A DNA stretch of 64,000 nt from an uncultured bacterium (GTDB lineage Bacteria > Omnitrophota > Gorgyraeia > Zapsychrales > Aceulaceae), in NCBI GenBank assembly GCA_937930175.1, contig CALGLP010000022.1, forward strand, positions 161,360 through 225,359, read 5' to 3'. The notes below the pieces were generated by a model. That model did no database searches and was not told the DNA's origin. It saw only the letters and a program-made list of their open reading frames with translations. Positions 9,138-49,038 of the stretch are shown piece by piece. Positions within the stretch are counted from its first letter, which is position 1; the number at the start of each line of letters is the position of its first letter. Position numbers and translations under genes: made by a program.

Positions 9138-10781
9138 ATGATGAGCATGTTTTGTTATCAGTGCCAGGAAACAGCAAGAAATACAGGATGTTTGGTTAAG
9201 GGTGTTTGTGGCAAAGACGAGCGTGTATCCAATTTAATGGATCTGCTCATTTATGTTTTACAGGGTATCTCCGTCTCTGCTCAGGAACTTACGCAGCCAC
9301 TCGACCGTCGATACGGCTTTTTTGTTATTAAGTCTCTTTTTGCAACGATTACCAACGCAAATTTTGATGAAGAGCGCATCGTTGCTCTTATTAAAGAAGG
9401 CTTAGGGCTGCGCGAAGAGCTCAAAAAGAAATCAGCGTGTGGTTGTTGCGGCGGCAGCTGTGTTGACGCGCTCGCCTGGTCGGGAAACAGCAAGGAAGAC
9501 ATGCTTAAGAAAGCTGCAACGGTAAGCCCATTATCGTATAGTCAAAATGAAGATATCCGTTCCCTTAAGTCTTTGCTGCTTTATGGCATCAAGGGCGCAG
9601 CAGCTTATGCAGAACATGCTGCCGTTTTAGGTGCTTATGATGATGAAATCTTTACCTTTATGTTTAAGGCGTTAAGCGCGTTGACAAAGAATTTATCAGC
9701 AGATGATCTTACGGCTTTGGTTCTAGAAGCTGGAGCTGTATCGGTGAAGGCGATGGCCCTTTTAGATGGATCTAATACAAGCGCCTATGGCCATCCTGAA
9801 ATCACAAAGGTTAATATAGGCGTTCGCAAGAATCCAGGCATCTTGATTTCTGGCCATGATCTCAAAGACATGGAGGAGCTTTTAAAGCAAACAGAAGGTA
9901 CGGGTGTTGATGTTTATACTCATAGTGAAATGCTTCCATCCAATTATTATCCCGCTTTTAAAAAATACGCTCATCTTGTGGGAAATTATGGTGGTTCCTG
10001 GTGGCATCAAAATAAGGATTTCGAAACCTTTAACGGTCCCATTTTGATGACGACTAATTGTATTATTCCTGTTCAAGATTCTTACAAGGATAGAATTTTT
10101 ACAACTGGAATGGCGGGTTATCCAGGTGTTGTGCATATTGCTGATCGACTGCCTAGCGGTAAAAAAGATTTTTCAAAAATTATTGCTTTGGCCAAGACAT
10201 GTCCGCCACCGCAGGAAATCGAGATGGGAGAAATTGTTGGTGGGTTTGCCCATCACCAGGTTCTCGCGCTTGCGGATCAAGTGGTTGAGGCTGTTAAGAG
10301 TGGAAAGATTAAGCGCTTTGTCGTTATGGCTGGCTGTGATGGACGACAGGCATCGCGCAGGTATTTTACGGATGTTGCCAACGCGCTGCCACAAGATACC
10401 ATTATTTTAACAGCTGGATGCGCGAAGTATCGTTACAACAAACTTGCCTTAGGCGATATCGGTGGTATTCCGCGTGTTTTAGATGCAGGGCAGTGCAATG
10501 ATTCTTATTCTTTGGCTGTGATTGCGTTAAAATTAAAAGAAGTTTTTGGGGTCAAAGACGTTAACGATCTGCCGATCTCTTTTGATATTGCCTGGTATGA
10601 GCAAAAAGCGGTGTGTGTTCTGTTGGCCCTTTTGCATCTTGGTTTTAAAGGGATCCGCTTAGGCCCAACCCTGCCAGGATTTTTAACACCGGGTGTTATT
10701 AAAGTTTTGGTTGAGAATTTTAACATTAAACTTGGAAGCAATGTCCAGGCTGATGTTGAGGCCATGATGGCAGGGCAGTAG
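9138..10781 (+). CDS. hcp: Hybrid-cluster protein (hydroxylamine reductase)
   Basis: N-terminal [16 protein letters not shown] cubane motif. Length about 545 aa and conserved core. RBS GGAGGGGG. Confidence 0.9.
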
Positions 10782-32617: not shown

Positions 32618-34726
32618 ATGTCACTTAAAGATCTCTTTCATTTTAATCAGAAGAATTCTTATGATCAAAATCACACCAAAGATCTAGGCGCTGTTTTTAA
32701 GCCTAAGGGGATTGCCGTTGTTGGTGCCTCGTCGAAGCCGGGTAAGGTCGGGTATCAGATCCTTAAGAATATTATTGATTGCGGCTATGAGGGCAATATT
32801 TATCCGGTTAATCCTAAGGATGAAGAAGTTTTAGGACGAAAAGCGTACAAAACGGTTGAGGAAATTCCTGGTGAGGTTGATACGGCGATCATTTCGATTC
32901 CAGCACCCTTGGTTATCCAAACGCTAGAAGGTTGTGCGCGTAAAGGTGTTAAAGGTGTTGCGGTGATCACCTCTGGCTTTGGCGAAGTTGGCAATATGGA
33001 TGAAGAGCTGCAGCTTAAGAAGATTGCGGATAAGCATAATATCGCGCTTTTAGGTCCGAACATGTTTGGTTATGTTTATACCCCTTCTAAACTTAACGCG
33101 AGTTTTGGCCCAGCTGATATTCGTCCTGGAAAGATCGCGTTTATTTCTCAAAGCGGCGCTTTGGCGATTTCGTTGATGGGCTGGACCGCCATGGAAAAAA
33201 TTGGCTTAGCATCGTTGGTCAATCTTGGCAACAAATCAGATATTGATGAGAAAGATCTGATCGATTATTTCAATAATGATGAAAATGTGGATGCTATCTT
33301 AATTTATATGGAAGGCATTAAAGAGGGTAGAAAGTTTCTAGAAACAGAGATTAAAAAGCCGGTTGTTATTTTAAAGGTGGGATCCTCTAATCGTGGCGCC
33401 AAAGCGGCTGCTTCGCATACGGGATCTTTGTCAGGATCAGATAAGATTTATGAAGGAGTTTTTAAACAATTAGGCCTTTTGCGAGCGAGTACGTTTACGC
33501 AGGCTTTTGATTGGGCCAGAGCTTTTTCTCTGCCGCTTCCTAAGGGTGATGAAACGATTATTATTACCAACGGCGGAGGCATTGGCGTTGCGACGACGGA
33601 CGAATGCGAAACTGCAGGGATGATTCTTCTTGATGATGCAGCCTGGCTTGAGGAAAAGTTTAGAAAAACCATGCCGGATTTTGGCAGCACAAAGAATCCT
33701 GTGGATATTACGGGGCAGGGAGGCGTTGTCGGTTATCGCGAGGCAACGAAAATCGCTTTTCATGAGGACAAGATTAAGTCCGTGATCATTCTTTATTGCG
33801 AAACGGCGGTGACTGATCCTATGGATATTGCGAAAGCGGTTCAAGAGGAATATAAGGCTGTCGGTCGCAATAAGCCTGTTGTTGTTGCCATGGTTGGTGG
33901 TCATCGCACACAGGAAGCTTTGCATTATCTTAATGATCATCATATTCCAGCTTTTACTGAGGTTAGCGAAGCCGTTTCTGCGCTCAAAGCCCTTTATAAG
34001 TGGAGAGAAATTTCAGGACGCAAGAAAGAGATCGCCAAGATTGATCCTGCGCCTCAAGAAGTGATCGACATCATTGATAAAATTAAAGCTGCGGGTCGAA
34101 CTATTTTGCTTGAGCATGAAGCGCGCAAGGTTCTTGAACTTTGTGGCGTTCCCACGCCCAAGTGGGGATTTGCCCGCAATATTGAAGAAGCTGTCGTGAA
34201 AGCCAAGGACATGTATCCTTTAGCGATGAAAATTGCTTCTCCAGAGATTATTCATAAGTCCGATGTCGGCGGGGTTGCTGTTAATATTCAGAGCGAAGAA
34301 CAGCTACGGACACAATTTGACAAAATGATGAACAAGGTTTCCGCAGCCGTTCCTGATGCCAATATCCTTGGGGTGAACTTGATCCAGATGATGAAGGGGA
34401 TTGAGTGTATCGTGGGTTTAAGTAATGATCCTCAATTTGGACCTGTGGTGATGTTTGGTTTAGGAGGTGTTTTTGTGGAGGCCTTAAAAGATGTATCTTT
34501 TCGTATTGTTCCGTTTGGTAAGATGGAGGCCGGGCGGCTTATCAATGATATTAAGACAGCAAAGATCCTTGATGGGTTTCGTGGGATTCAAGCGGATAAG
34601 GCATCAATTGTGCAGACGATTTACTCGATTCAGAAGCTGGCCCCGTTGGTCAAAGAAATTGACATCAATCCTCTTATTACGAACAAAGATGGAAGCTTTG
34701 CCGTCGATGCAAGGATTATTCTTTAG
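32618..34726 (+). CDS. acd: Acetate--CoA ligase (ADP-forming) / NDP-forming acyl-CoA synthetase, fused alpha-beta
   Basis: N-terminal CoA-binding GIAVVGAS..GKVG. Succinyl-CoA-synthetase-like flavodoxin domain. C-terminal ATP-grasp. Upstream promoter TTGCAA-17-TTATAAT. Confidence 0.85.
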   Translation: MSLKDLFHFNQKNSYDQNHTKDLGAVFKPKGIAVVGASSKPGKVGYQILKNIIDCGYEGNIYPVNPKDEEVLGRKAYKTVEEIPGEVDTAIISIPAPLVIQTLEGCARKGVKGVAVITSGFGEVGNMDEELQLKKIADKHNIALLGPNMFGYVYTPSKLNASFGPADIRPGKIAFISQSGALAISLMGWTAMEKIGLASLVNLGNKSDIDEKDLIDYFNNDENVDAILIYMEGIKEGRKFLETEIKKPVVILKVGSSNRGAKAAASHTGSLSGSDKIYEGVFKQLGLLRASTFTQAFDWARAFSLPLPKGDETIIITNGGGIGVATTDECETAGMILLDDAAWLEEKFRKTMPDFGSTKNPVDITGQGGVVGYREATKIAFHEDKIKSVIILYCETAVTDPMDIAKAVQEEYKAVGRNKPVVVAMVGGHRTQEALHYLNDHHIPAFTEVSEAVSALKALYKWREISGRKKEIAKIDPAPQEVIDIIDKIKAAGRTILLEHEARKVLELCGVPTPKWGFARNIEEAVVKAKDMYPLAMKIASPEIIHKSDVGGVAVNIQSEEQLRTQFDKMMNKVSAAVPDANILGVNLIQMMKGIECIVGLSNDPQFGPVVMFGLGGVFVEALKDVSFRIVPFGKMEAGRLINDIKTAKILDGFRGIQADKASIVQTIYSIQKLAPLVKEIDINPLITNKDGSFAVDARIIL

Positions 34727-35190: not shown

Positions 35191-36963
35191 TTATTTTAAG
35201 TATGATTTTCGTGCAATGTAGCTGGTGTGGAGAAGGTGATGGGATTTTTCAGAAAGCGGTTTGCCAAGAAACTCATCGTAAAGTTTCTGGATATAAGGAT
35301 TGTCATGGCAGCAGCGCACTTTCTGGTCACGATCATCTTGATAAAGCCCTTGGGCGCGTTTGATGCGTAAGTCGTCGGTAACTCCGTAGGGTTGTCCGCC
35401 TCCGGCCACGCAACCTCCAGAGCAAGCCATTACTTCAATAAAATGATACGGCATGTCTTGGCCATTCTTTTTAGCCTCAAGAACTTTGTTCATCACGTAA
35501 CCAACATTTCCTAAGCCATGCGCAACCGCTACTTTGACTTGTGTGCCTTTGATGTTGATCGTTCCCTCCTTGACTCCTTGAAGTCCGCGGACCATGTCGA
35601 TCTCAACATTTTTTAAGTTTTCTTGGGTGATCATGTTGTAGGCTGTTCGCAGAGCTGCTTCCATAACGCCGCCCGTGGTCCCGAAGATGGTTCCACCGCC
35701 AGCATAATCTCCTAAGATGTGATCAGGCTCTTCATCGGGTAAATTTTTAAAGTCAATTCCCGCCTGGCGGATCATGCGCGCAAGTTCACGCGTTGTGAGG
35801 GACAAGTCGACATCTTGCTGTCCGGAAGAGAACATTTCTTTGGATCGTATAATCTCGAATTTCTTGGCCGTGCAAGGCATGATCGAGACAACGAAAATAC
35901 GTTTGGGATCAATTTTGTTTTTTTCAGCAAAATATGTCTTAGCAAGGGCTCCGACCATTTCGTGAGGCGATTTACACGAGGAGAAAAATTCAATAGCGCC
36001 GTGGATATACTTTTCCATAAAATCGACCCAGGATGGGCAGCAGCTTGTGATCAAGGGCAAGGGCCCTTTTTTGTGAACAAAGCGTTGAACAAACTCTGTG
36101 GCCTCTTCGATGATGGTAACATCGGCACCAAAGTTTGTATCAAAGACAGCTTTAAAGCCAAGTCGGCGTAGGACAGCGTAAAGTTTTTTGGTTAAATTGG
36201 TTCCAATCGGATAGCCAAAGCTTTCTCCAATAGCGACGCGAACCGCAGGTGCAATCTGTGCAACGCAATAATTGTTTTCATCACGTAGCTTCGCCCATGT
36301 TGATTCGGTTTGGTCGTATTCGAAGATAGCGCCGGTAGGGCAGTGGGCAGAGCATTGGCCGCAGCGAACACACGGCGAGTCTGCTAAATTGATGTTGGCG
36401 GTTTCGAGGTCTCCTGCAGGGGCAATGCGCATATGGATACCGCGTCCTAAGAATCCTAACGCCCAGACATCTTGAATTTGTTGACAGACTTCAACACAAC
36501 GGCCGCATTTGATACATTTGGCAGGTTCCAAGACGATGCTTTTTGTTGAGATATCTTTTGTTTTGTTCTTGATAACTTTCTCAAAAAGTTCTTCTTGGAT
36601 TGCAAAGTCTGCGGTGAGTTTTTGGAGTTCACAATAATAGCTTCGTCCGCACTGAAGACAATCGTTGGGATGGTTGGATAAAATAAGCTCCAGAACGGTT
36701 TTGCGGACTTCAACGATTTCCGGATCATGGGTGATGATCTCCATGCCATCTTCAAGCGTGGTACAGCAAGAACGGAGAAGTTTTTTAGAGCCTTTAATTT
36801 TGACAATACATAGGCCGCACGCCGCTGTGGCGGGAAGGTCCGGATGTTTACAGAGGGTGGGGATTCTGATGTGAGCTTGTTTTGCAGCATCGAGAATGCT
36901 CAAACCCGCTGGGACGCGAACATTTTTATCATTAATTTTAGCTTTGATTGTTTTTGCTTGCAT
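35191..36963 (-). CDS. hydA: [FeFe]-hydrogenase catalytic subunit (HydA/HndD-like, multimeric NAD(P)-linked type)
   Basis: H-cluster motifs TSCCPSW, MPCTAKKFE and EVMACSGGCVAGGGQP. N-terminal 2Fe-2S domain and two 4Fe-4S ferredoxin motifs. Confidence 0.9.
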   Translation of the reverse strand: MQAKTIKAKINDKNVRVPAGLSILDAAKQAHIRIPTLCKHPDLPATAACGLCIVKIKGSKKLLRSCCTTLEDGMEIITHDPEIVEVRKTVLELILSNHPNDCLQCGRSYYCELQKLTADFAIQEELFEKVIKNKTKDISTKSIVLEPAKCIKCGRCVEVCQQIQDVWALGFLGRGIHMRIAPAGDLETANINLADSPCVRCGQCSAHCPTGAIFEYDQTESTWAKLRDENNYCVAQIAPAVRVAIGESFGYPIGTNLTKKLYAVLRRLGFKAVFDTNFGADVTIIEEATEFVQRFVHKKGPLPLITSCCPSWVDFMEKYIHGAIEFFSSCKSPHEMVGALAKTYFAEKNKIDPKRIFVVSIMPCTAKKFEIIRSKEMFSSGQQDVDLSLTTRELARMIRQAGIDFKNLPDEEPDHILGDYAGGGTIFGTTGGVMEAALRTAYNMITQENLKNVEIDMVRGLQGVKEGTINIKGTQVKVAVAHGLGNVGYVMNKVLEAKKNGQDMPYHFIEVMACSGGCVAGGGQPYGVTDDLRIKRAQGLYQDDRDQKVRCCHDNPYIQKLYDEFLGKPLSEKSHHLLHTSYIARKSYLK

Positions 36964-36965
36964 GA

Positions 36966-38762
36966 TTAACCTCGTGTGATCGCTTTAAATTTACATCGTT
37001 CGAAACATAGGCCGCATTTGATACATTTGGTGTGATCAATGAGATAGCCTTTTTCGCGGTCTCCGGAGATGGCTCCCACAGGGCATGCCTTGGCACAAAG
37101 ACCGCATTTAATACATTTTTCTATGAGAATGTCGAATTTGAGTAAATGACTACATTTGTGGGCGCGGCATTTATGATTTTGAATGTGCTCGGTATATTCC
37201 TCTGTAAAATATTTCATCGTTGATAAAACAGGGTTGCTTGCCGTTTGCCCTAGGCCGCATAGCGATGCCTTTTGCATGGCCTGGGATATCCTTGAAAGTT
37301 TATCAAGGTGGTCCATGGATCCATTGCCGTTGGTGATTTTTTCAAGGAGATGAAGCAGCTGATAGCCTCCAATGCGGCAGGGTGCGCATTTGCCACAAGA
37401 TTCATCAACAGAAAATTGTAAATAAAACTTTGTAATGTCCACAATACAATCATCTTCATCCATGACGATCATGCCGCCAGATCCCATCATCGAGCCAATG
37501 GCAATTAGGTTGTCATAATCGATGGGGGTGTCTAAGAATTGCGCGGGGATGACGCCTCCTGAAGGGCCTCCGGTTTGTGCAGCTTTGAATTGTTTGCCAT
37601 CTTTGATCCCGCCACCGATATCAAAGATGATCTCTCGCAGGGTTGTTCCCATGGGGACTTCGATAAGGCCAGAGTTGTTGATTTTTCCTGTTAAGGCAAA
37701 GACCTTTGTGCCTTTTGACTTTTCGGTCCCTATTTTAGCAAACCATGCGGCACCTCTTAAGATGATGACGGGGATGTTGGCCCAGGTCTCAACATTATTG
37801 ATAACAGTTGGTTTACCCCAAAGTCCTTTGACCGCAGGAAAAGGAGGTCGAGGCCGTGGCATGCCACGTTCACCTTCAAGAGAGGCTAAGAGCGCTGTTT
37901 CTTCGCCGCAAACAAAGGCGCCAGCTCCTAATCGGATTTCAATGTCAAAGCTAAAGGAACTTCCTAAGAGATTTTCACCTAAGAGTCCATAATCACGGGC
38001 TTGCGCTATGGCGATGTTGAGTCGCTCGATGGCGAGCGGGTATTCTGCGCGAATATAAATAAAGCCTTTGTTGGCATTAACCGCATAACCGGCAATGGTC
38101 ATTGCTTCGAGGATGGAGTGGGGGTCACCTTCAAGCGTGCTTCTGTCCATATAGGCTCCAGGATCGCCTTCGTCCGCGTTGCAGACAATATATTTGATGT
38201 CGCTAGGAGCTTTTTTTGTGAATGACCATTTCATGCCTGTTGGGAATCCTGCGCCACCGCGTCCGCGTAGGCCTGATTTGGTGACTTCCTCAATGACTTG
38301 GTCAGGGGTCATCTCAAAGAGGACTTTTTCAAGCGCCTTGTAGCCATCGCGGGCAATGTATTCATCGATTTTTTCAGGATCGATCACGCCGCAGTTTCTT
38401 AAGACAATGCGAAATTGTTTTTGATAGAAATCGATATTGGCCACGTCGGTCATAGGGTGGCGGCCTTTGTCGTCTTTGGGGTTGTACAAAAGACGCTTGA
38501 CCATTCGTCCTTTAATAATGTTTTCTTCGATGATCTCGCGAACATCTTCAGGCTTGAGTCGCACATAAAAGGCATTGTCGGGTAAGACTTTAACAATGGG
38601 TCCTTGTTCGCAAAAGCCAAAACAACCTGTTTTAACAACTTGGACATCATTTTCAAGCTGATGGTCTTTGATTTCTTTCATGAAATGATCATGGATTTCG
38701 CGCGAGCGACTTGATTCGCAGGCCGTTCCAGAACAAATAAGAATATAATGTTTATAGGGCAT
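36966..38762 (-). CDS. hydB: NuoF-like NAD(P)H-binding flavoprotein subunit (HydB/HndC)
   Basis: N-terminal thioredoxin-like 2Fe-2S. NuoF FMN/NADH motifs (GRGGAGFPTG, ADEGDPGA). SLBB and C-terminal 2x4Fe-4S (CIKCGLC...). Confidence 0.9.
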   Translation of the reverse strand: MPYKHYILICSGTACESSRSREIHDHFMKEIKDHQLENDVQVVKTGCFGFCEQGPIVKVLPDNAFYVRLKPEDVREIIEENIIKGRMVKRLLYNPKDDKGRHPMTDVANIDFYQKQFRIVLRNCGVIDPEKIDEYIARDGYKALEKVLFEMTPDQVIEEVTKSGLRGRGGAGFPTGMKWSFTKKAPSDIKYIVCNADEGDPGAYMDRSTLEGDPHSILEAMTIAGYAVNANKGFIYIRAEYPLAIERLNIAIAQARDYGLLGENLLGSSFSFDIEIRLGAGAFVCGEETALLASLEGERGMPRPRPPFPAVKGLWGKPTVINNVETWANIPVIILRGAAWFAKIGTEKSKGTKVFALTGKINNSGLIEVPMGTTLREIIFDIGGGIKDGKQFKAAQTGGPSGGVIPAQFLDTPIDYDNLIAIGSMMGSGGMIVMDEDDCIVDITKFYLQFSVDESCGKCAPCRIGGYQLLHLLEKITNGNGSMDHLDKLSRISQAMQKASLCGLGQTASNPVLSTMKYFTEEYTEHIQNHKCRAHKCSHLLKFDILIEKCIKCGLCAKACPVGAISGDREKGYLIDHTKCIKCGLCFERCKFKAITRG

Positions 38763-38772
38763 AAAAACCTCG

Positions 38773-39162
38773 TTAATGTTTTACAATGTCAATAGAAGGT
38801 TTGTCTTGAATATGATCATCGAGTAGCGCTTTGTCGATAATATGTTTCTGGATAATCTTACGCGCAGTATCTTCTGTGACGTTTCCATAGAGAGTCGTTG
38901 GCATGTCGGGCATGAAGATCTCAACGGTCGGCTCAACATTGCAATTGCCCATACAGCCGGTTTGTTTAACCGCAATATTCTTAAGGTTACGTTTGTTGAG
39001 TTCATCGATGAAGGCATTTAAGGTTTTTTTGGCTCCTGCAGCAATTCCGCAAGTTCCCATGCCAACCACGATACGGGTATCTTGTTGGCTATCGCGCTTG
39101 TCCATGTCTATTTTGAGCGATTCGCGCATTTTTCGTAAATCATCAAGAGTAAGTTTGCTCAT
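38773..39162 (-). CDS. Small thioredoxin-like 2Fe-2S ferredoxin subunit (HndB/HydD-like)
   Basis: GMGTCGIAAGA...GCMGNCNVEP cluster-binding pattern. Sits between the ATPase and NuoF-like genes. Confidence 0.7.
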   Translation of the reverse strand: MSKLTLDDLRKMRESLKIDMDKRDSQQDTRIVVGMGTCGIAAGAKKTLNAFIDELNKRNLKNIAVKQTGCMGNCNVEPTVEIFMPDMPTTLYGNVTEDTARKIIQKHIIDKALLDDHIQDKPSIDIVKH

Positions 39163-39171
39163 AGTTATCTC

Positions 39172-39714
39172 CTAGAGATTGATAATGTCTTGTTCTAAGC
39201 TAATGAGATATTTCTGGGCTAGCATTAAGTTGCCAGCGCGAGAGAGATCTCCGAGTGTTTTTTTCAAATCATTACGAACAATAGTATATTTTTGTTCGCC
39301 GTATGATCGGTTGATGACCAATTCATGATTGCCATCAAAGATCATTAACTGCAACATTGTCTGCGGTACGTCGCCAAGCGGGGGAGTATCCACATGGGAT
39401 TTATGAAACGTAAAGGAAACTGATGTTCCAAAATCTTTTTCAGATCGAATATCCCAGGTGCCGCAACCCTGTTCTACGGCTTGCGCTAAGAACGATAATC
39501 CAAGGCCTTGCGTGCGTTTATGTTTTTTGCCATTGGTTATAAAAGGATCTTGCGCCTTGGCTAAGGTTTTGGGATCCATGCCTTTACCATTATCTGCGAC
39601 CAGAAACTTATATTTTTCCTTTGTTTCGATGACATCAACAACAATGAGCGTCGCTTCGGATTCAATAGAGTTTTGAACAATGTCGCTTAAAAAGTCACAG
39701 AGCGTTAAATGCAT
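39172..39714 (-). CDS. Histidine-kinase-like ATPase (HATPase_c only) associated with hydrogenase operon
   Basis: N-box-like IVQNSIES, DNGKGMD, GLGLS G-boxes. No HisKA or receiver domain. Confidence 0.65.
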   Translation of the reverse strand: MHLTLCDFLSDIVQNSIESEATLIVVDVIETKEKYKFLVADNGKGMDPKTLAKAQDPFITNGKKHKRTQGLGLSFLAQAVEQGCGTWDIRSEKDFGTSVSFTFHKSHVDTPPLGDVPQTMLQLMIFDGNHELVINRSYGEQKYTIVRNDLKKTLGDLSRAGNLMLAQKYLISLEQDIINL

Positions 39715-39716
39715 TG

Positions 39717-40189
39717 CTAATACTTAGAAAGAATTTCTGGAAGTTGGCTTTTGAGAAGCTTTCCGTAGACGGTTCCGTTGATGGACATGACGGGAGCGAG
39801 TCCACAGCAGCCTAAGCAGCGTACAGCTTCAACCGAAAATTTTCCATCCGGGGTCATATCATTGAGGCCTACTCCTAAGATGGTTTCAAGCTCTTTGATG
39901 ATGTCTTCGCCGCCCTTAAGATAACAGGCTGTTCCCATGCAAACGGCAATAATGTTTTTTCCTCGTTTTTCTAATTTAAAGTAATGATAAAAAGTAATCA
40001 CGCCATAAATTTTGGCGAGAGGAACATCGAGAACTTCGGCGAGTTTGAAAGCAACATTGCGAGGAATAAAGCCATATTCTTCTTGGGCCTTGTGTAAGAT
40101 CATGATGAGATTGCCGGGCTTGTCTTTCCATTGAGCAATATAATCTAAAAGCCCAGGTGTGAGTTCAAGATTTTTGATCGTTTCCATTT
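39717..40189 (-). CDS. hydC: NuoE-like 2Fe-2S subunit (HydC/HndA)
   Basis: CMGTACYLKGGE...CLGCCGLAPV thioredoxin-like 2Fe-2S motifs. GGAGGA RBS on the minus strand. Start at ATG 40189. Confidence 0.85.
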
Positions 40190-40348
40190 TAAATCCTCCA
40201 GTGAGAAGCTTAAGAATAGGGCAAATTATAAAGGAAAGAGGGGAACTAATCAAGAGAAATCTTTTGTTACTATGAGAACTTTTAATTTGACATATTGATA
40301 TCTTATGTTACTATTGTGACATAAAAATAGAGAAAGGAGAGTGTTATT

Positions 40349-41011
40349 GTGACTGAAAGCAAGGAATTGATATCACGATTGCTCAAATATAAGAATGTTT
40401 TAACAAATTTCAAAAAACTTGGGATGGTCAAGATCTTTTCGGACAATCTTGGGGATGCTACGGGGTTGTCCTCGTCGCAGGTGCGTAAGGATTTTAGCGC
40501 CCTCAAGATCACCGGCAATAAGCGTGGCGGTTATGATGTTGATCATTTGGTTGTGCGGCTTAATCAAATCTTAGTTGGTGACCGTAAGCAGAAGGTGATC
40601 GTGGTCGGTTGTGGCAATATTGGCCGTGCCTTGATTGAATATAACGGATTTCATTGCGAGAGTCTAAAAATCGTTGCGGGGTTTGATATTAGCAAAGGGA
40701 AATGGGATCCTGAGGCTAAGGTGCCGATCTATCCATTAGAAAAAATGGAAGAGTATGTTAAGAAGAATCAGATCAAGGTTGGCGTTGTTGCTGTCCCTGA
40801 GAATGAGGCATCTTCGGTTTGCGACAAGATGATCGCCGCAGGTATTAAGGGTATTTTAAATTTTGCACGTGTTTATATTCGCGAGACCGAAGGGGCTGTG
40901 GTGGATACGGTTAACATTGAGCTCAAGATCGAGAATTTGTTTTATTTCGCCAATGCCCTAACCAAAGAACATGATTATTCTAAGATTAAGAGGCAACTCC
41001 ATGAAGATTGA
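40349..41011 (+). CDS. rex: Redox-sensing transcriptional repressor Rex
   Basis: Winged-helix N-terminus (ISRLLKYKNVL...ATGLSSSQVRKDFS) and Rossmann VIVVGCGNIGRAL. GTG start after AAGGAGAG. Confidence 0.85.
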   Translation: MTESKELISRLLKYKNVLTNFKKLGMVKIFSDNLGDATGLSSSQVRKDFSALKITGNKRGGYDVDHLVVRLNQILVGDRKQKVIVVGCGNIGRALIEYNGFHCESLKIVAGFDISKGKWDPEAKVPIYPLEKMEEYVKKNQIKVGVVAVPENEASSVCDKMIAAGIKGILNFARVYIRETEGAVVDTVNIELKIENLFYFANALTKEHDYSKIKRQLHED

Positions 41012-43327: not shown

Positions 43328-43506
43328 CGGTCTTTAGCAAAGAGCAAGAATTACGACTAGATAGTTAAGACTTAAAAAACATTTTTGATTTCTAGTATTT
43401 TGTGTATAATATTTTAATTGATCGAGACAAGGTATTGCATTTTTTAACGAGCAAGGGGTGTGGGGTTGAATAAAGATGATTTTATTTTTTGGTTAAAGAA
43501 ACATGT

Positions 43507-43542
43507 GCCGGCTTACCATGAAAGGTGAGCCGGTTTTATTTT
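43507..43542 (+). terminator. Intrinsic terminator/attenuator ending 23 nt before the nuoE-like start codon
   Basis: GCCGGCTTACC-ATGAAA-GGTGAGCCGG stem followed by TTTTATTTT. RBS AAAAAGGAGG and GTG 43566 follow directly. Confidence 0.6.
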
Positions 43543-43565
43543 ATGGATTTTAAAAAGGAGGCGTT

Positions 43566-44129
43566 GTGAAGCAAATAAGCCAAGGTTTGTCAAAAGATCA
43601 GCCTGTTGGTTCCTGTTGTTGTGGTGAGTTCTCCGAACCAGAAATGTTAAAACGTCTCGATGAGATTATTGATACGTATAAGTCTGCGGATGGGGCCTTG
43701 ATCCCGATCTTGCAAACAGCTCAAAATTTATTTGGATATCTTCCGAAAAATATTTTGCGTCGGATTGGCGAACGATTGCGGATCCCGTATAGTCAAGTCG
43801 CTGGCGTTGTGTCGTTTTATTCTTTTTTCTCAACAAATCCTCGGGGTAAGAATTTAGTGCGTGTGTGTCTGGGAACCGCGTGCTATGTGCGTGGAGGCAA
43901 GGAGGTTTTGTCAACGATGCAAAAAACCCTTGGCATTAATGTTGGTGAAACAACAGCTGATAAAATGTTTTCGCTGGAGGTTGGGCGTTGTTTTGGTGCC
44001 TGTGGTTTGGCGCCTGTTGTGATGATCAACGAGGATGTTCATCAGCGGGTTAAGCCAGCAAAGATAAAAGAACTTCTAAGCTTTTATCGTGAGGCAAAGT
44101 CACAGACACAGGAGGCCGCCGCATGTTAA
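43566..44129 (+). CDS. hydC: NuoE-like 2Fe-2S subunit (HydC/HndA), second locus
   Basis: CLGTACYVRGG...CFGACGLAPV. Confidence 0.85.
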   Translation: MKQISQGLSKDQPVGSCCCGEFSEPEMLKRLDEIIDTYKSADGALIPILQTAQNLFGYLPKNILRRIGERLRIPYSQVAGVVSFYSFFSTNPRGKNLVRVCLGTACYVRGGKEVLSTMQKTLGINVGETTADKMFSLEVGRCFGACGLAPVVMINEDVHQRVKPAKIKELLSFYREAKSQTQEAAAC

Positions 44130-47100
44130 CTGACAAGATTTTATCCTTGAAAGATTTAAATCGTATCAAAGATGCTGCGGTTGCGGAAAAGGTCAAACGT
44201 AGTATTTATAAAGAGGTTTTGATCTGTGCTGGGGGAGGATGTATTGCTAGCGGTTCGCTGCAGATTAAGAAACGCTTGGAAGAGAAGATTGAGAAGAATG
44301 GAGTTGTCATCGATATTGTCGAGACAGGATGTTTAGGTCCTTGCGCTAAGGGGCCTGTGATGGTCGTAAACCCTGGGCATGTCTTTTATGAGAATGTTAC
44401 CCTTGATGATGTTGATCAAATTTTTGAGGAACATCTTTTTAAGGGGAAAATTGTTGAGCGGCTTTTGCATCGCAATTTTGAAACGAATAAACCTGTTTCT
44501 GACATCAAGGATGTTGATTTTTTTAAACGACAAACAAAAATTGTTTTGCGGAATTGCGGAACGATCGATCCTCAGAATATTGTTGATTATATTCGCGTGG
44601 ATGGATATCAGGCTTTGGCCAAGGCTTTGACGATGATGTCGGCTGATCAGATTATTGATGAGGTTAAAAAGTCAGGGCTCCGCGGCCGTGGAGGAGCAGG
44701 GTTTTCTACTGGAATGAAATGGGAATTTACACGTAAAGCGCCCGGCAGTGTTAAATACGCGATTTGCAACGCGGATGAAGGAGATCCTGGGGCTTTCATG
44801 AATCGAAGCGTTCTTGAGGGAGATCCTCATAGCGTGATCGAAGGGATGATGATCGCGGGTTTTGCGATTGGGGCTAAACAAGGATTTGTTTATGTGCGGG
44901 CGGAGTATCCGTTGGCGGTTTCACGATTGATGAAGGCGATCGAGCAGGCTCGGGCGTGTGGCCTTTTAGGAAAAAATATTCTTGGAACGGATTTTTCATT
45001 TGATTTGGATATCCGCATGGGTTCTGGGGCGTTTGTGTGCGGAGAAGAAACTGCTTTGATGGCATCATTGGAGGGAAAGCGTGGAGAGCCGCGTCCGCGT
45101 CCACCTTTTCCAGCTATTAAAGGACTTTGGGGTAAGCCGAGCTTGCTCAATAACGTTGAGACATATGTTAATGTGCCGATCATTCTCCTTAAAGGGGCCG
45201 ATTGGTTTGCGTCGATGGGAACGGAAAAAAGCAAGGGAACCAAGGTGTTTGCCTTAGCAGGGGCTGTGAACAATACAGGGCTTGTGGAGGTTCCTATTGG
45301 GACGTCGCTTGGGGAGTTAATTTATGATATTGGCGGTGGGATCAAAAATGGAAAAGAATTTAAGGCCGCTCAAATTGGAGGGCCCTCGGGAGGCTGTATC
45401 CCTAAGCAACATCTTAATGTTCCATTGGACTACGACACGCTTGTTGAGTTGGGCGCTATCATGGGATCAGGCGGGCTCATTGTGATGGATGATGATTCGT
45501 GTATTGTGGATGTGGCGCGTTTTTTTCTTGAATTTGTGCAAGATGAATCGTGCGGAAAATGTGTGCCGTGTCGTGTTGGGTCAAAACGGATGCTTGAGAT
45601 CCTTGAGAAAATTTGTAAAGGAGAAGGTAAACCAGAGCATATTAAGAAATTGCTTGAATTGGGTGAAGGAATAAAAGATGCTTCGCTTTGTGGGTTAGGC
45701 TATACCTCGGCTAATCCTGTGCGTTCAACCTTGCGTCATTTTCCTAAAGAATATGAAGAGCATATTCGTGATAAACATTGTGAGGCTGGGGTTTGCCCTG
45801 ATCTCGTGCGGGCCCCGTGCCAGAGCGCTTGCCCAGCCGGTGTTGACATTCCAGGTTTTATTGCTTTAACAGGGGAAGAACGCTACGCGGAAGCGCTCAA
45901 GCTTCATCGTGAACGCAATCCTTTTGCGGCTGTGTGCGCAAGAGTTTGTTTTCACACTTGCGAGGATAAATGTCGCCGCGCTACGCTCGATACATCGGTT
46001 TCGATTCGTGGGATCAAGCGTTTTATGGTGGACCAAGAGATTGTCGTCCAAATCCCGGAGATTCATCATAACGAGGCAAATGCTAAGAGAAAGATCGCGA
46101 TTGTTGGGGCGGGGCCTGCCGGACTGTCTTGTGCGTATTTTCTTGCGCGCTTAGGTTATCGTCCTACGGTTTTTGAGAAAGAAATGCGTCCTGGAGGGAT
46201 GCTTGTTCAAACTATTCCTGCGTATCGTTTGCCACGAGAAACCTTAGCCCGTGAAATCCGCATGATTGAGCAGCTTGGTGTTGAAATTGAAACCGGAAAG
46301 GCGCTGGGACGTGATTTTACGATTGATTCGTTAAAGAAGCATGGTTATGAGGCGATCTTTATTGCCGTAGGAGCTCCGGAAAGTGTGCGCCTTGGGCTTG
46401 ACGGCGAAGCCTCGGGAGGGGTTGTTGATGCCCTTGATTTTTTAAGAACTTATAATATCAGGGGATCTGTTCCTGTGGGTAAGAAAGTTGTTGTTGTAGG
46501 AGGTGGGAATGCCGCGATTGATGCCTCGCGGAGCGCGTTGCGTTTAGGGGCCCAAGAAGTGACGGTTGTTTATCGTCGTAGTCAAAATGAAATGCCAGCG
46601 TACGCGGAAGAAGTGGACGAGGCTTTGCATGAAGGTGTCAAGATCTTGCCTTTAACTCACCCTATCGAGATCAAAAAGGATAAGGATGGGAAAGTCTGTG
46701 GATTAAAGTGTATTCACATGAAGCTTGGGGATTTTGATCAGACAGGGCGACGACGCCCAACCGCGAACGCGGAAGATGTTTTCGATATGGAAACGGATCA
46801 AGTGATTGTTGCGATTGGACAGAAAATGGATGTTAAAAAGCTTCTTGATGGGGTAACGATGAAGCTTTCAGAGAGAAATTTTATTTATGCGGATCCGGTT
46901 TTAGGAAAAACTTCGGTGGAGGGAATTTTTGCCGGAGGGGATGCCACGACGGGTCCTTCCTCAGTTGTGATGGCGATTTCTTCAGGAGAACATGCGGCAG
47001 TTGGGATTGATCAATATTTGACCGGAGAAGAACATGCATTTTGGCGTGTGCAGAAAGCTGTTAAGGTTGATTTTGATCCCGATGCGGACCCTGCTCCATA

Positions 47101-47260
47101 TCCGCGAGATCCGTTGCGATTGATTGATGTGGCGCGTCGCAAACATAATTTTGATGAAGTTGAACAATCGTGGAATGAAGGCGTAGCTAGGCGGCAAGCC
47201 AAGCGATGTTTGCGCTGCGATTATGGAAAATGTTTAGATGAGAAAGGGGGTAAGGCGTAA
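44123..47260 (+). CDS. hydB: NuoF-like flavoprotein subunit (HydB) fused to a C-terminal GltD/NfnB-like NAD(P)H:FAD oxidoreductase domain
   Basis: The N-terminal 600 aa are collinear with the first-locus HydB (GRGGAGFSTG, ADEGDPGA, 4Fe-4S motifs). The C-terminal 440 aa carry the GltD-type Cys motifs, IVGAGPAGL and a second VVVGGGNAA dinucleotide fold. Confidence 0.85.
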   Translation: MLTDKILSLKDLNRIKDAAVAEKVKRSIYKEVLICAGGGCIASGSLQIKKRLEEKIEKNGVVIDIVETGCLGPCAKGPVMVVNPGHVFYENVTLDDVDQIFEEHLFKGKIVERLLHRNFETNKPVSDIKDVDFFKRQTKIVLRNCGTIDPQNIVDYIRVDGYQALAKALTMMSADQIIDEVKKSGLRGRGGAGFSTGMKWEFTRKAPGSVKYAICNADEGDPGAFMNRSVLEGDPHSVIEGMMIAGFAIGAKQGFVYVRAEYPLAVSRLMKAIEQARACGLLGKNILGTDFSFDLDIRMGSGAFVCGEETALMASLEGKRGEPRPRPPFPAIKGLWGKPSLLNNVETYVNVPIILLKGADWFASMGTEKSKGTKVFALAGAVNNTGLVEVPIGTSLGELIYDIGGGIKNGKEFKAAQIGGPSGGCIPKQHLNVPLDYDTLVELGAIMGSGGLIVMDDDSCIVDVARFFLEFVQDESCGKCVPCRVGSKRMLEILEKICKGEGKPEHIKKLLELGEGIKDASLCGLGYTSANPVRSTLRHFPKEYEEHIRDKHCEAGVCPDLVRAPCQSACPAGVDIPGFIALTGEERYAEALKLHRERNPFAAVCARVCFHTCEDKCRRATLDTSVSIRGIKRFMVDQEIVVQIPEIHHNEANAKRKIAIVGAGPAGLSCAYFLARLGYRPTVFEKEMRPGGMLVQTIPAYRLPRETLAREIRMIEQLGVEIETGKALGRDFTIDSLKKHGYEAIFIAVGAPESVRLGLDGEASGGVVDALDFLRTYNIRGSVPVGKKVVVVGGGNAAIDASRSALRLGAQEVTVVYRRSQNEMPAYAEEVDEALHEGVKILPLTHPIEIKKDKDGKVCGLKCIHMKLGDFDQTGRRRPTANAEDVFDMETDQVIVAIGQKMDVKKLLDGVTMKLSERNFIYADPVLGKTSVEGIFAGGDATTGPSSVVMAISSGEHAAVGIDQYLTGEEHAFWRVQKAVKVDFDPDADPAPYPRDPLRLIDVARRKHNFDEVEQSWNEGVARRQAKRCLRCDYGKCLDEKGGKA

Positions 47261-49038
47261 TGGTGAAGTTAACAATTGATCGTAACATGGTCGAAGTTCC
47301 CCCTGAGATGACGATTTTGCAGGCCGCGCGACAAATGGGCATTATTATTCCTACGTTGTGTTATCTAGAAGGTAAGGATCCTATTGGTGCCTGTCGGGTG
47401 TGCGTTGTTGAGGTGCAAGGTGGTCGTAATTTGGTATCATCTTGTTCAACGCCTGTTGCGGAAGGCATGGTTGTTTTTACCAATAGCCCCCGTGTTCGTA
47501 GAGCTCGTAAATTAGTTGTTGAGCTTCTTTTGAGTGAGCATGAAGGAGATTGTCAAATTTGTGACCGCAGTGAGGATTGCGAATTAAAATCCTTGGCTTA
47601 TAGCTTAGGAATTCGCGAGCCGCATTATGAGGGTGAAAAGCCAGAAAGGTTTTTGGATGTAAGTTCTTCCGCGCTTGTTCGAGATTCTGGCAAGTGCATA
47701 AAATGTCGTCGCTGTGTTACGGTTTGCAACGAAATTCAACACGTGGGAGCCCTTTTTCCTCAGAATCGTGGATATAAAACATTGATCGGACCTGCGTTTG
47801 CTCTAGGCCTTGAAGATGTACCTTGCGTTCAATGTGGGCAGTGTGCAGCGGTTTGTCCTGTGGGCGCGATCATTGAGAAAAGCCATGTGGATATGGTTTG
47901 GGCAGCGCTTGAGGACAAGACTAAACATGTCGTTGTGCAAACCGCTCCCGCGATTCGTGCGGCGCTAGGGGAGTGTTTTGATTATCCACCAGGAACTCTT
48001 GTGACAGGAAAAATGATCACCGCGCTTCGTCTTATGGGATTTGATGCGGTTTTTGATACTAATTTTGCGGCGGATTTGACGATCATGGAAGAAGGCACAG
48101 AGCTTTTGTTGCGTCTTAAAAAGGCGCTCGTTGAAAAACAACCCGTGGCCTTGCCTCAATTTTCAAGTTGTTCGCCGGGATGGATCAAGTTTACCGAATA
48201 TTTTTATCCAGAGTTTCTGCCGAATCTATCTTCTTGTAAGTCACCGCAACAAATGTTTGGCGCGATCGCGAAGACGTTTTATGCGCAAAAGAAGGGCTTG
48301 CGTCCTGAAGATATTGTTGTTGTGTCGGTTATGCCGTGTACGGCGAAAAAGTTTGAATCCAGCCGTCCTGAGATGAATAGTAGCGGCGTCAGAGACGTGG
48401 ATTATGTTTTGACAACACGCGAATTAGGTCAGATGATCACGGCGGCCGGTATTCATTTTACAGCGTTAGAAGACGGACAGACGGATTCGCCTCTTGGGCT
48501 TTCGTCGGGTGCCGCGGATATTTTTGCTAATAGCGGTGGGGTTATGGAGGCGGCTATCCGTACGGCTTACGAGATCGTGACAGGTCGTGAGCTTCCACTT
48601 GTAAATCTTCATGTTGAACCTTTGGCAGGGCTAAAGGGAATTAAAGAAGCAGCCCTTAAGCTTGAGCAGGTTCTTCCGGCGTGGTCTTTTTTAGAAGGTG
48701 TTGAATTAAAAGTCGCCGTCGCGCATAGCTTATCCAATGCCGCGGCCTTGCTTGATCTCATCAAGGCGGGTCAGGCCCATTATCATTTTGTTGAGGTCAT
48801 GACATGTCCTGGGGGATGTATTGGTGGAGGAGGCCAGCCGCGATTTACAACTGATGAAGTCCGTCGGGCGCGCATCAATGCGATCTACAAGGAAGACGAA
48901 GGCAAGGCAATGCGCAAATCCCATGACAATCCGGACGTAAAAAAGCTCTATGCAGAGTTTTTGACTGATGGCCCTTGTGGTCATCAAAGCCATAAGCTTT
49001 TGCATACGCATTATGTTGACCGTGGGGATAAAATTTGA
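47260..49038 (+). CDS. hydA: [FeFe]-hydrogenase catalytic subunit, second locus, with variant L1 motif
   Basis: MPCTAKKFE and EVMTCPGGCIGGGGQP are conserved. L1 reads FSSCSPGW instead of TSCCPxW. N-terminal 2Fe-2S plus ferredoxin domains. ATG overlaps the hydB stop. Confidence 0.9.
   Translation: MVKLTIDRNMVEVPPEMTILQAARQMGIIIPTLCYLEGKDPIGACRVCVVEVQGGRNLVSSCSTPVAEGMVVFTNSPRVRRARKLVVELLLSEHEGDCQICDRSEDCELKSLAYSLGIREPHYEGEKPERFLDVSSSALVRDSGKCIKCRRCVTVCNEIQHVGALFPQNRGYKTLIGPAFALGLEDVPCVQCGQCAAVCPVGAIIEKSHVDMVWAALEDKTKHVVVQTAPAIRAALGECFDYPPGTLVTGKMITALRLMGFDAVFDTNFAADLTIMEEGTELLLRLKKALVEKQPVALPQFSSCSPGWIKFTEYFYPEFLPNLSSCKSPQQMFGAIAKTFYAQKKGLRPEDIVVVSVMPCTAKKFESSRPEMNSSGVRDVDYVLTTRELGQMITAAGIHFTALEDGQTDSPLGLSSGAADIFANSGGVMEAAIRTAYEIVTGRELPLVNLHVEPLAGLKGIKEAALKLEQVLPAWSFLEGVELKVAVAHSLSNAAALLDLIKAGQAHYHFVEVMTCPGGCIGGGGQPRFTTDEVRRARINAIYKEDEGKAMRKSHDNPDVKKLYAEFLTDGPCGHQSHKLLHTHYVDRGDKI

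Follow-up and report, generated by a model that had tools for sequence, protein, structure and literature searches.

A HydB–GltD fusion subunit of a HydABC-type [FeFe] hydrogenase in an Omnitrophota bacterium, with a predicted NADP(H) module at the position of the ferredoxin domain

The stretch of DNA analysed in this study, referred to as the window, comprises 64,000 nucleotides of contig CALGLP010000022.1 (assembly GCA_937930175.1, positions 161,360 to 225,359) from an uncultured bacterium of the Omnitrophota (Aceulaceae). It carries a hydrogenase operon, hydC-hydB::gltD-hydA, whose middle gene (44123-47260, plus strand) is a single unbroken frame with an ATG start and 1045 codons. In the initial annotation, made from the letters alone, the product of this gene was described as a HydB (NuoF-like) subunit fused to a GltD/NfnB-like NAD(P)H oxidoreductase domain, which would add a second nicotinamide site to the hydrogenase and combine it with the logic of an Nfn-like transhydrogenase. 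In this study, the fused subunit was compared with known enzymes, with its homologues in other genomes and with a canonical hydrogenase set encoded in the same window.

The fused gene and the two halves of its product

The end of hydC and the start of hydB::gltD overlap by 7 nt, and the stop codon of hydB::gltD overlaps the ATG of hydA (TAATG); thus, the fused gene is translationally coupled to hydC upstream and to hydA downstream. The protein of 1045 aa exceeds its 598-aa HydB paralogue (36966-38762, minus strand) by 447 aa, close to the 450 aa noted previously. Domain searches with Pfam and NCBIfam agreed that a HydB (NuoF-like) subunit is joined here to a GltD-like FAD/NAD(P)H module. In the N-terminal half, Pfam recognized 2Fe-2S_thioredx (residues 31-103), Complex1_51K (181-352; 6e-43), SLBB (376-424; 5.6e-8) and NADH_4Fe-4S (463-547; 1.8e-33), and in the C-terminal half Fer4_20 (550-639; 3e-22) and Pyr_redox_2 (657-955; 5e-34). 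Moreover, NCBIfam placed nuoF_fam at 149-548 and the GltD-like models PRK12771 and PRK12814 at 518-1039. All of the motifs that had been ascribed to the extension were located in the translation, namely the GltD-type cysteine clusters C558-PDLVRAP-C566-QSA-C570-P (558-573) and AVC605ARVC609FHTC613EDKC617 (603-617), IVGAGPAGL at 660-668 and VVVGGGNAA at 790-798. The suspicion that the C-terminal region might not be GltD/NfnB-like at all was thus removed by the Fer4_20, Pyr_redox_2 and PRK12771/PRK12814 matches.

The distribution of the fusion was surveyed with a junction-spanning query (aa 470-720); partner counts given below come from 83 loci and junction lengths from 84 sequences. The same domain set was found in more than 120 independent protein clusters of 1015-1060 aa with 66-100% identity, at least 15 clusters at the 50% identity level cover both halves, and the junction lies in one frame at 80 reference-genome loci. 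In addition, 83 of the 84 sequences agree in the length of the junction, H-x5-C-x4-C-x7-C-x3-CP. The frame might have concealed two genes split by a stop or a frameshift, or adjacent hydB and gltD-like genes might have been merged by an error of sequencing or assembly. The frame is unbroken and its independent homologues are many; an artefact, for which no supporting evidence was found, is ruled out by the clusters of equal length, the in-frame genome loci and the constant junction, and its probability is negligible. The constant junction length argues for a single origin of the fusion or for a strong constraint on it. A crude neighbour-joining tree of the N-halves, which carries no support values and is not relied on here, gave the fused proteins as non-monophyletic, with 13 canonical HydBs nested inside them. 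An exact look-up of the fused protein returned no record, and a 100%-identical cluster (P0001) was listed among its homologues; the closest named homologues belong to metagenome-assembled genomes (MAGs) of Candidatus Omnitrophota.

Residues 1-558 constitute a full HydB/BfuB core of the bifurcating type, with the cysteines of a [2Fe-2S] cluster, the flavin mononucleotide (FMN) loop, cluster B1, a hinge of three cysteines and one histidine, and three sequence markers. According to the criteria of Losey et al., these markers (Ala and Met in the NADH region, Phe near the FMN, and GGPSG) separate bifurcating from non-bifurcating beta subunits. In the fused protein they correspond to A224 and M226 of GAFM, F304 in GSGAFVCGEE, and GGPSG, all of which were invariant in 91 homologues; the B1 cysteines were likewise invariant in all 83 related loci. 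The best sequence matches in the PDB cover residues 28-565 and are HydB chains or their relatives: the NiFe-HydB of A. mobile (772 bits), HydB of A. woodii (762), HydB of T. kivui (670), StnB of S. ovata (667), HydB of T. maritima (626), and the NfnB(Bfu) chains of C. saccharolyticus and T. sibiricus. Foldseek comparison of the N-half with HydB chains gave target-normalised TM-scores of 0.83-0.93 at 49-59% identity in the structure-based alignment. The domains expected of BfuB were also found, namely NuoF FMN/NADH (IPR011538), SLBB (IPR019554), NuoF [4Fe-4S] (IPR019575), cluster B5 and the 3Cys+His B2 site, and the NuoE-like [2Fe-2S] subunit (IPR002023) expected of BfuC is encoded next to it by hydC (43566-44129).

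All PDB alignments of the N-half end near residue 565, short of the C-terminal ferredoxin-like (Fer4) domain of their targets. In current models of HydABC, Stn and NfnABC, this domain, which holds clusters B3 and B4, is the mobile ferredoxin-reducing outlet reached from cluster C1 of HydC (PMC9499530, PMC10482914, PMC11829005). Pfam gave no Fer4-family match for the fused protein and, for the paralogue, Fer4/Fer4_7 at 548-594; the IPR017896-type C-terminal 4Fe-4S dicluster (B3/B4) of BfuB is thus lacking, and Fer4_20 and Pyr_redox_2 stand in its place. The GltD module is entered at C566, eight residues past the last hinge cysteine, C558. Because B3/B4 are absent and the chain runs from C558 straight into the GltD module, the module takes the place of the ferredoxin-type 2x[4Fe-4S] domain, the ferredoxin site of HydABC, and is no simple addition. 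The earlier claim of a second nicotinamide site must be amended in this respect: an NADPH-type site (GxGxxA, YRR) is present, but the 450 aa substitute for the Fer4 domain and are not plainly added to it.

The hinge itself seems to be retained. In T. maritima HydB, a Zn site made up of three Cys plus a His, located where the four-helix bundle ends, has been put forward as the hinge for the mobile C-terminal domain (PMC9499530). The set C460/H547/C553/C558 is invariant in all 83 related loci and is present in the canonical paralogue as well, and its composition and position suggest that these residues are the equivalent Zn ligands. In the AlphaFold2 model of the fused protein, two halves are confident (mean pLDDT 80.9), the pTM is only 0.56 and confidence drops at 559-562; a hinged module would fit these features. 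With Foldseek, no PDB chain was found to span both halves, and the best query-normalised TM-score was 0.51.

Residues 563-1033 form a GltD/NfnL-like module with two [4Fe-4S] clusters, flavin adenine dinucleotide (FAD) and an NADPH-type GxGxxA/YRR site. The features shared by GltD, NfnL and domain II of dihydropyrimidine dehydrogenase (DPD) were all found, that is, two [4Fe-4S] clusters bound by seven Cys and one non-Cys ligand, a GxGxxG motif for FAD and a Rossmann fold for NAD(P)H. Its best PDB matches are NfnA of C. saccharolyticus (377 bits, residues 101-570 of that protein), NfnA of T. sibiricus (352) and StnC of S. ovata (326); NfnB of T. maritima (297) and P. furiosus (267), GltD (189) and DPD (182) scored lower. 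Compared with classical NfnB/NfnL by Foldseek, the module gave target-normalised TM-scores of 0.79-0.82. The seven cysteines of the module, Lys632 (His in one subclade) and YRR are conserved across the 83 loci, with GxGxxA and YRR kept in 80 or more of them. C605 varies across loci and is presumably not a cluster ligand.

Several features distinguish this module from the bifurcating NfnB type. K632 aligns with K170 of StnC, at a position where NfnB has a Glu cluster ligand; this Glu of the proximal cluster has been tied to low potential and bifurcation in NfnB, and StnC, which has Lys, is non-bifurcating. R702, the counterpart of a conserved Arg close to the FAD, aligns with R239 of StnC, and Y817-R818-R819 and GxGxxA 793-798 align with both NADPH-binding NfnB and StnC; the equivalent of C114 of StnC is Ile576, as in NfnB. 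Furthermore, the module shares the circular permutation that sets StnC and NfnA apart from NfnB, in that its C-terminal tail corresponds to the N-terminus of T. maritima NfnB. C1029 and C1032 of this tail are invariant, and the proteins end 2-31 residues past RCLxC. The marks of the module embedded in Stn/Nfn-Bfu enzymes (Lys632, Arg702, GxGxxA and the permuted CxxC in RCLRC, 1028-1032, at the module end) were thus all found, and of the marks of classical bifurcating NfnB two were missing, with Lys632 in place of Glu and no gene in the operon for an NfnA/NfnS-like partner, which would carry 2Fe-2S and a second FAD. Bit scores, Lys632, Arg702, the shared permutation and GxGxxA/YRR indicate a module of the non-bifurcating Stn/NfnABC type, not of the NfnSL type. 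The label GltD/NfnB-like is accordingly right for the GltD/NfnL fold and the NADPH motifs and misleading as to bifurcation, given the 377 and 326 bits against 297, Lys632, the permutation and the absence of NfnS.

As to the clusters, the ligand pattern, which we take to be that of DPD and NfnB, would be C1029, C1032, C566 and C617 for the distal cluster and C570, C609, C613 and K632 for the proximal one. On this assignment, the distal cluster, built from hinge-adjacent residues and the extreme C-terminus, would sit topologically where B3 would be. Since it is composed of hinge-side residues and the C-terminal tail, it probably faces the HydB core.

Distribution, partner subunits and relation to known enzymes

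The fusion, with a full-length junction, is spread over MAGs of at least 15 phyla. According to the labels of the MAGs, the junction was matched in Spirochaetota, Chitinivibrionales, Verrucomicrobiota/Kiritimatiellae, Planctomycetota/Phycisphaerae/Sedimentisphaerales, Actinomycetota, Firmicutes/Clostridia/Halanaerobiales, Chloroflexota (Caldilineaceae, Dehalococcoidia), Armatimonadota, Syntrophales/Smithella, Desulfobacterota, Bacteroidales, Cloacimonadota, Acidobacteriota, Aminicenantales, Omnitrophota and Firestonebacteria, as well as in one MAG of Promethearchaeota.

In nearly all related loci, the gene directly upstream of the fused one encodes HydC, and the downstream partner varies. A HydA with an H-cluster domain follows directly in 39 of the 83 loci, in genomes of many phyla, and a NuoG-like A subunit without an H-cluster in 17, plus 7 truncated cases. 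These partners without an H-cluster, whose genes lie about 5.6-8.7 kb into each locus, include Mo/W formate dehydrogenases (L054, L061), apparently selenocysteine-containing ones whose open reading frame stops after DHCARL (L048, L058), a NuoG-HdrA-like fusion (L077) and small HoxU-like proteins (L065, L073, L080), one of them in the Promethearchaeota MAG. Given these varied partners, the fused subunit behaves as a modular variant of the BfuBC core. In addition, a canonical ferredoxin-type HydABC often stands beside the fused set, as in the window, in L003, L019, L084 and in others, which argues for a distinct, non-redundant role of the fused set. A canonical HydC-HydB(-HydA) set follows the fused gene immediately at six loci (L020, L029, L039, L043, L044, L069). 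Five or six loci are ordered C, B::GltD, C', B', A with a single HydA, an order that hints at a shared or larger complex.

Two further groups of proteins were observed in the survey. More distant NuoF-GltD fusions of 1000-1130 aa (P0128, P0132, P0133, P0138, P0141, P0154, P0171, P0226) keep the C-H-C-C hinge and the GltD clusters and have a degenerate FMN loop, often with degenerate B1 and B5 as well; these may constitute a family of their own whose NuoF domain is dead. In the second group, of about 650 aa (P0211, P0233, P0242, P0245), the match to the query is confined to about 420-1033, which takes in the four-helix [4Fe-4S] domain of NuoF, the hinge and GltD. The names of their clusters ('formate dehydrogenase beta subunit', 'FAD-dependent oxidoreductase') are uninformative, and they are possibly similar to SfrB of Geobacter.

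The system in the window shares with HydABC of T. maritima, of T. kivui and of A. woodii (PDB 7p5h, 8a6t, 7q4v) the hydC-hydB-hydA operon, B5, FMN, B1, the Zn hinge, GAFM/F304/GGPSG and an H-cluster domain in HydA, and a canonical copy of HydABC is encoded 3 kb away. It differs in that the fused HydB has a GltD-like module of about 480 aa instead of the B3/B4 domain and in that the HydA reads SSCSPGW/TSCSPGW, not TSCCPxW. With the Stn/NfnABC enzymes (S. ovata, 8oh5; C. saccharolyticus, 9bov; T. sibiricus, 9n5u) it has in common the same kind of module joined to a HydBC-like bifurcating core. In those enzymes, however, the NuoG-like A subunit contains the module as an insertion that serves, in the hydrogenase's stead, as the entry of the third substrate, and the B subunit retains its ferredoxin domain, whereas here the module is on the C-terminus of the B subunit in the place of the ferredoxin domain and the A subunit is a predicted [FeFe] hydrogenase. 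The large subunit of classical NfnAB/NfnSL (4ylf_B, 5jca_L) has the same module fold, two [4Fe-4S] clusters, FAD and an NADPH site with YRR, but the fused operon has no NfnA/NfnS partner and its module has Lys for the Glu ligand and is circularly permuted. Finally, HydAB of Syntrophus aciditrophicus and Hyd1ABC of Syntrophomonas wolfei, which work without ferredoxin, likewise have no B3/B4 ferredoxin-type domain. Their beta subunits have no B5 and carry non-bifurcating markers (T/S and K/S/A, Tyr, no GGPSG), whereas the window protein has the bifurcating pattern plus the NADPH module.

In the literature, the architecture appears as an annotation remark on the second of the trimeric hydrogenases (peg.3894-3896) of Vallitalea guaymasensis L81, for which a link with glutamate metabolism was speculated (Schouw et al. 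2018, PMC6163223); the likeness to the window protein is drawn from this published description. Word searches of the papers on Bfu, Stn, NfnABC, the distribution of NfnAB and non-bifurcating HydAB, of an Nfn review, and of the Buckel-Thauer, Losey and Hydrogenedentota papers found no GltD-fused B subunit. In the Bfu paper of Schut et al. 2022, BfuB is defined by four InterPro domains including IPR017896, and all Bfu cores are said to interact with ferredoxin (PMC9304861); the function of the family is the coupling, by electron bifurcation, of a third substrate with NAD(H) and ferredoxin. Judging from the Pfam result, the fused type may have been filtered out of that census for want of a Fer4 domain. 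The fused type is a large, phylogenetically broad and essentially uncharacterised variant of HydABC/Bfu with one passing mention in a genome paper.

The HydA partner and the hydrogenase island

The HydA of the fused operon scored 863 bits with the NCBIfam model FeFe_hydrog_A6 (cutoff 765). Its motifs L2 (MPCTAKKFE; canonical MPCxxKxxE) and L3 (EVMTCPGGCIGG; canonical ExMxCxxGCxxG) are intact, and only L1 deviates, with Ser at the second Cys of TSCCPxW. The sequence T/SSCSPGW was found in 36 of the 39 HydAs encoded downstream of fused HydB in other genomes, whereas the canonical HydA of the window has TSCCPSW. The Cys lost at this position is conserved and donates protons to the H-cluster, and engineered substitutions are described as strongly impairing activity (PMC3485046). 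TSCSPGW has been remarked on once, in trimeric hydrogenases of Melainabacteria, without a link to the B subunit (PMC3787301).

In the window, the canonical set is followed by a Rex-like gene, CBS/HATPase and PHP genes, the fused operon, a CMD-family gene, a Lyase_1 gene and hydF-hydG-hydE; the same layout of the island is seen in a 91%-identical relative from another assembly (L084). Between the fused and the canonical sets, identity is 57% for the HydB cores, 45% for HydA and 39% for HydC. The coordinates of the features are collected in Table 1.

Table 1. Positions in the window of the hydrogenase genes, their domains and neighbouring features
Feature	Position	Strand	Remarks
Canonical paralogous set	35191..40253	-	hydC 39717-40253, HATPase_c 39172-39714, small 2Fe-2S protein 38773-39162
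Canonical hydA	35191..36963	-	TSCCPSW
Canonical hydB	36966..38762	-	598 aa, Fer4 dicluster C-terminal domain
Rex-like redox-sensing regulator	40349..41011	+	Pfam Put_DNA-bind_N + CoA_binding; between the hydrogenase loci; position kept in L084
hydC leader	43386..43545	+	promoter-like TTGATT-N14-TGTGTATAAT; conserved hairpin and T-tract 43507-43534
hydC	43566..44129	+	187 aa, GTG start, NuoE-like [2Fe-2S]; Pfam 2Fe-2S_thioredx 1e-50; NCBIfam HoxE/NuoE
hydB::gltD	44123..47260	+	fused flavoprotein subunit, 1045 aa
N-terminal thioredoxin-like [2Fe-2S] domain, cluster B5	44213..44431	+	C35, C40, C70, C74; invariant in the near clade
FMN/NADH domain	44663..45178	+	GLRGRGGAGF loop 185-194 (invariant), GAFM 223-226, F304
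SLBB domain	45248..45394	+	GGPSG marker 419-423
Four-helix-bundle [4Fe-4S] domain, cluster B1	45509..45763	+	C477, C480, C483, C523; Pfam NADH_4Fe-4S
Junction H547-x5-C553-x4-C558-x7-C566	45761..45820	+	putative Zn hinge (with C460), then first GltD cluster ligand
Fer4_20 region, ligands of two [4Fe-4S]	45770..46039	+	C566, C570, C609, C613, C617, K632
FAD and NADP(H) Rossmann domains	46091..46987	+	GxGxxG 662-667, R702, GxGxxA 793-798, YRR 817-819
C-terminal tail RRKHNFDEVE...RC1029LRC1032	47111..47221	+	supplies CxxC ligands; aligns with 4ylf_B residues 7-43
hydA	47260..49038	+	predicted [FeFe] hydrogenase catalytic subunit, 592 aa; Pfam Fe_hyd_lg_C 1.5e-92
H-cluster motif L1 SSCSPGW of fused-operon HydA	48163..48183	+	HydA aa 302-308; Ser at second Cys of TSCCPxW
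H-cluster maturases hydF, hydG, hydE	51270..55016	+	Pfam HydF_dimer/tetramer, Radical_SAM+BATS, Radical_SAM; downstream of fused operon

The leader of hydC contains a GC-rich hairpin of 11 bp, which lies about 90 nt past the promoter-like element, with only about 30 nt left to the start of hydC. In the 91%-identical relative the hairpin is kept, with a compensatory change of C-G to T-A, while its flanks diverge; it could serve as a transcription attenuator. An Rfam search of the leader returned no family and just a sub-threshold match at chance level. The N-terminus of HydC (43566-43640) contains a Cys-rich GSCCCGE, and CCxC-like motifs occur in a minority of the partner HydCs (L003, L014, L018, L022); as only this minority carries such a motif, it is not regarded as characteristic of the family. 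The window was scanned for the Rex operator TTGTGAAN6TTCACAA with up to 3 mismatches, which gave 4 matches against 6 expected by chance, none of them near the hyd promoters, and control of the hyd operons by Rex is a guess from gene position alone.

Other genes of the window were noted in passing. The Lyase_1 gene (aspartase/fumarase family, 49889-51286) lies between the fused operon and hydF, where L084 has only a TM1266-like gene. At 9138-10781, a gene for a hybrid-cluster (prismane) protein precedes one for a D-2-hydroxyacid dehydrogenase, and an ADP-forming acetyl-CoA synthetase gene (32618-34726) adjoins the canonical hydrogenase; these three genes fit an anaerobic fermentative lifestyle.

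Proposed function and competing explanations

On balance, and by a slight preference, the system is read here as a HydABC-type (Bfu-family) enzyme of H2, NAD(H) and NADP(H), in which NADP(H) takes the place of ferredoxin. In this scheme, electrons from H2 would enter through HydA to the B1-FMN-C1 site, where the first branch would reduce NAD+ at the FMN. The gated branch, which normally leads from C1 through B3/B4 to ferredoxin, would instead pass through the distal GltD cluster, the proximal cluster and FAD to NADP+. The GltD module would act as a plain, non-bifurcating entry or exit of electrons, and any bifurcation or confurcation would take place at the FMN flavobicluster. In the direction of a fermenter, NADPH would assume the low-potential role of ferredoxin and NADH the high-potential role, and both would jointly drive H2 evolution without ferredoxin.

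The energetics of such an enzyme can be estimated from published potentials of -280 mV for NADH, approximately -380 mV for NADPH in vivo, -414 mV for H2 and -500 mV for ferredoxin (PMC9304861, Table 1). By simple arithmetic at 29.6 mV per decade, the equilibrium H2 is about 3 Pa with NADH alone, about 150 Pa with NADH and NADPH (mean -330 mV) and about 0.15 bar with NADH and ferredoxin (mean -390 mV). Since the value of about 150 Pa lies between the other two, a hydrogenase that confurcates NADH and NADPH would hold an intermediate thermodynamic niche; it would also balance both nicotinamide pools.

Several points weigh against this proposal. Topology alone suggests how electrons would pass from C1/FMN to the GltD clusters, and motifs and homology suggest the preference for NADPH over NADH. 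At high H2, NAD+ and NADP+ can both be reduced by H2 without energetic coupling, so that there is no obvious need to keep the full bifurcating core. The Ser at the proton-relay Cys of HydA may entail an unusual turnover or catalytic bias, because engineered substitutions of this Cys are described as strongly impairing. Moreover, ferredoxin could dock on an exposed GltD cluster, as in NfnSL.

The last of these points leads to a four-substrate enzyme, in which ferredoxin is still used, at the distal GltD cluster or elsewhere, and H2, NAD(H), NADP(H) and ferredoxin are linked by HydABC chemistry plus Stn-like transhydrogenase chemistry. Every marker of the bifurcating core is retained, ferredoxin of classical NfnSL is thought to bind close to the homologous subunit's distal [4Fe-4S] cluster (PMC5861303), and the same module in StnABC passes electrons of NADPH to a HydBC-like core that reduces NAD+ and ferredoxin. 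However, the ferredoxin site of Stn/NfnABC is the C-terminal domain of the B subunit (B3/B4), precisely the domain missing here; the proximal cluster is the Lys type of the wire-like, non-bifurcating StnC and not the Glu-type, low-potential cluster of NfnB; and the probable orientation of the distal cluster towards the HydB core also speaks against such docking. We consider this enzyme unlikely, and the same holds for the combined hydrogenase and Nfn-like transhydrogenase logic of the initial annotation: a HydB::GltD protein does stand within a genuine HydC-HydB-HydA operon, but its anatomy, with no B3/B4, a Stn-type module and no NfnA/NfnS, does not suggest the full, ferredoxin-requiring logic.

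A rather improbable alternative is a non-bifurcating dual-cofactor hydrogenase, in which FMN and FAD are independent entries on one wire, NADH or NADPH alone suffices, and the enzyme is useful only at very low H2. NADH-only non-bifurcating HydAB enzymes are described as working at 2-40 Pa H2 (PMC7311640), loss of B3/B4 is listed as a feature of non-bifurcating homologues (PMC9304861), and the reduction by H2 of NAD+ and of NADP+ is exergonic in both cases. Against this stand the three bifurcating-type markers, the presence of B5 and the Zn hinge, both missing from non-bifurcating beta subunits, and the retention of HydC with its gating C1 cluster upstream in nearly all related loci. A role of the module other than with NADP(H), such as reduction of polysulfide or Fe(III) as in its SudA/Nso/Sfr relatives, or redox sensing with a Ser-variant HydA that is slow or sensory, has very little to commend it, as the FAD/NADPH motifs and every cluster ligand are strictly conserved across phyla. 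Sulfide dehydrogenase, NADPH sulfur oxidoreductase and Fe(III) reductase were indeed the activities under which the module's relatives were initially purified (PMC7483475), HydA has the L1 motif TSCSPGW, and kinase-like and PHP genes lie upstream; but the HydA scores above the NCBIfam cutoff for catalytic group A and has no PAS or sensory domain, and the pairing of the fused B subunit with formate dehydrogenases fits a general redox-coupling core, not a sensor.

The preferred reading, an NAD(H)- and NADP(H)-linked HydABC-type enzyme, can be extended from the window to the whole type. More tentatively, the fused proteins might form a ferredoxin-free branch of Bfu enzymes in at least 15 phyla, paired with hydrogenases, formate dehydrogenases and other modules and with a co-adapted Ser-HydA, in which NADPH replaces ferredoxin and H2 or formate is formed by confurcation of NADH with NADPH (or the reaction runs the other way), and which the 2022 census probably overlooked.

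Where and how bifurcation takes place in HydABC/Bfu enzymes is still a matter of debate, and current models regard the mobile B3/B4 domain as the ferredoxin outlet. A subunit in which exactly B3/B4 have been exchanged for a covalent two-electron NADP(H) module, with the rest of the core unchanged, provides a natural test case for these models, and the question can be tested directly in a cultured carrier, Vallitalea guaymasensis L81. If the proposal is true, neither ferredoxin nor a separate transhydrogenase would be needed by fermenters and syntrophs to dispose of both NADH and NADPH in the form of H2 or formate. Furthermore, annotations as 'NuoF' and 'group A [FeFe]' would have to be reinterpreted in metagenome-based metabolic models of Omnitrophota, Spirochaetota, Planctomycetota, Verrucomicrobiota, Syntrophales and others.

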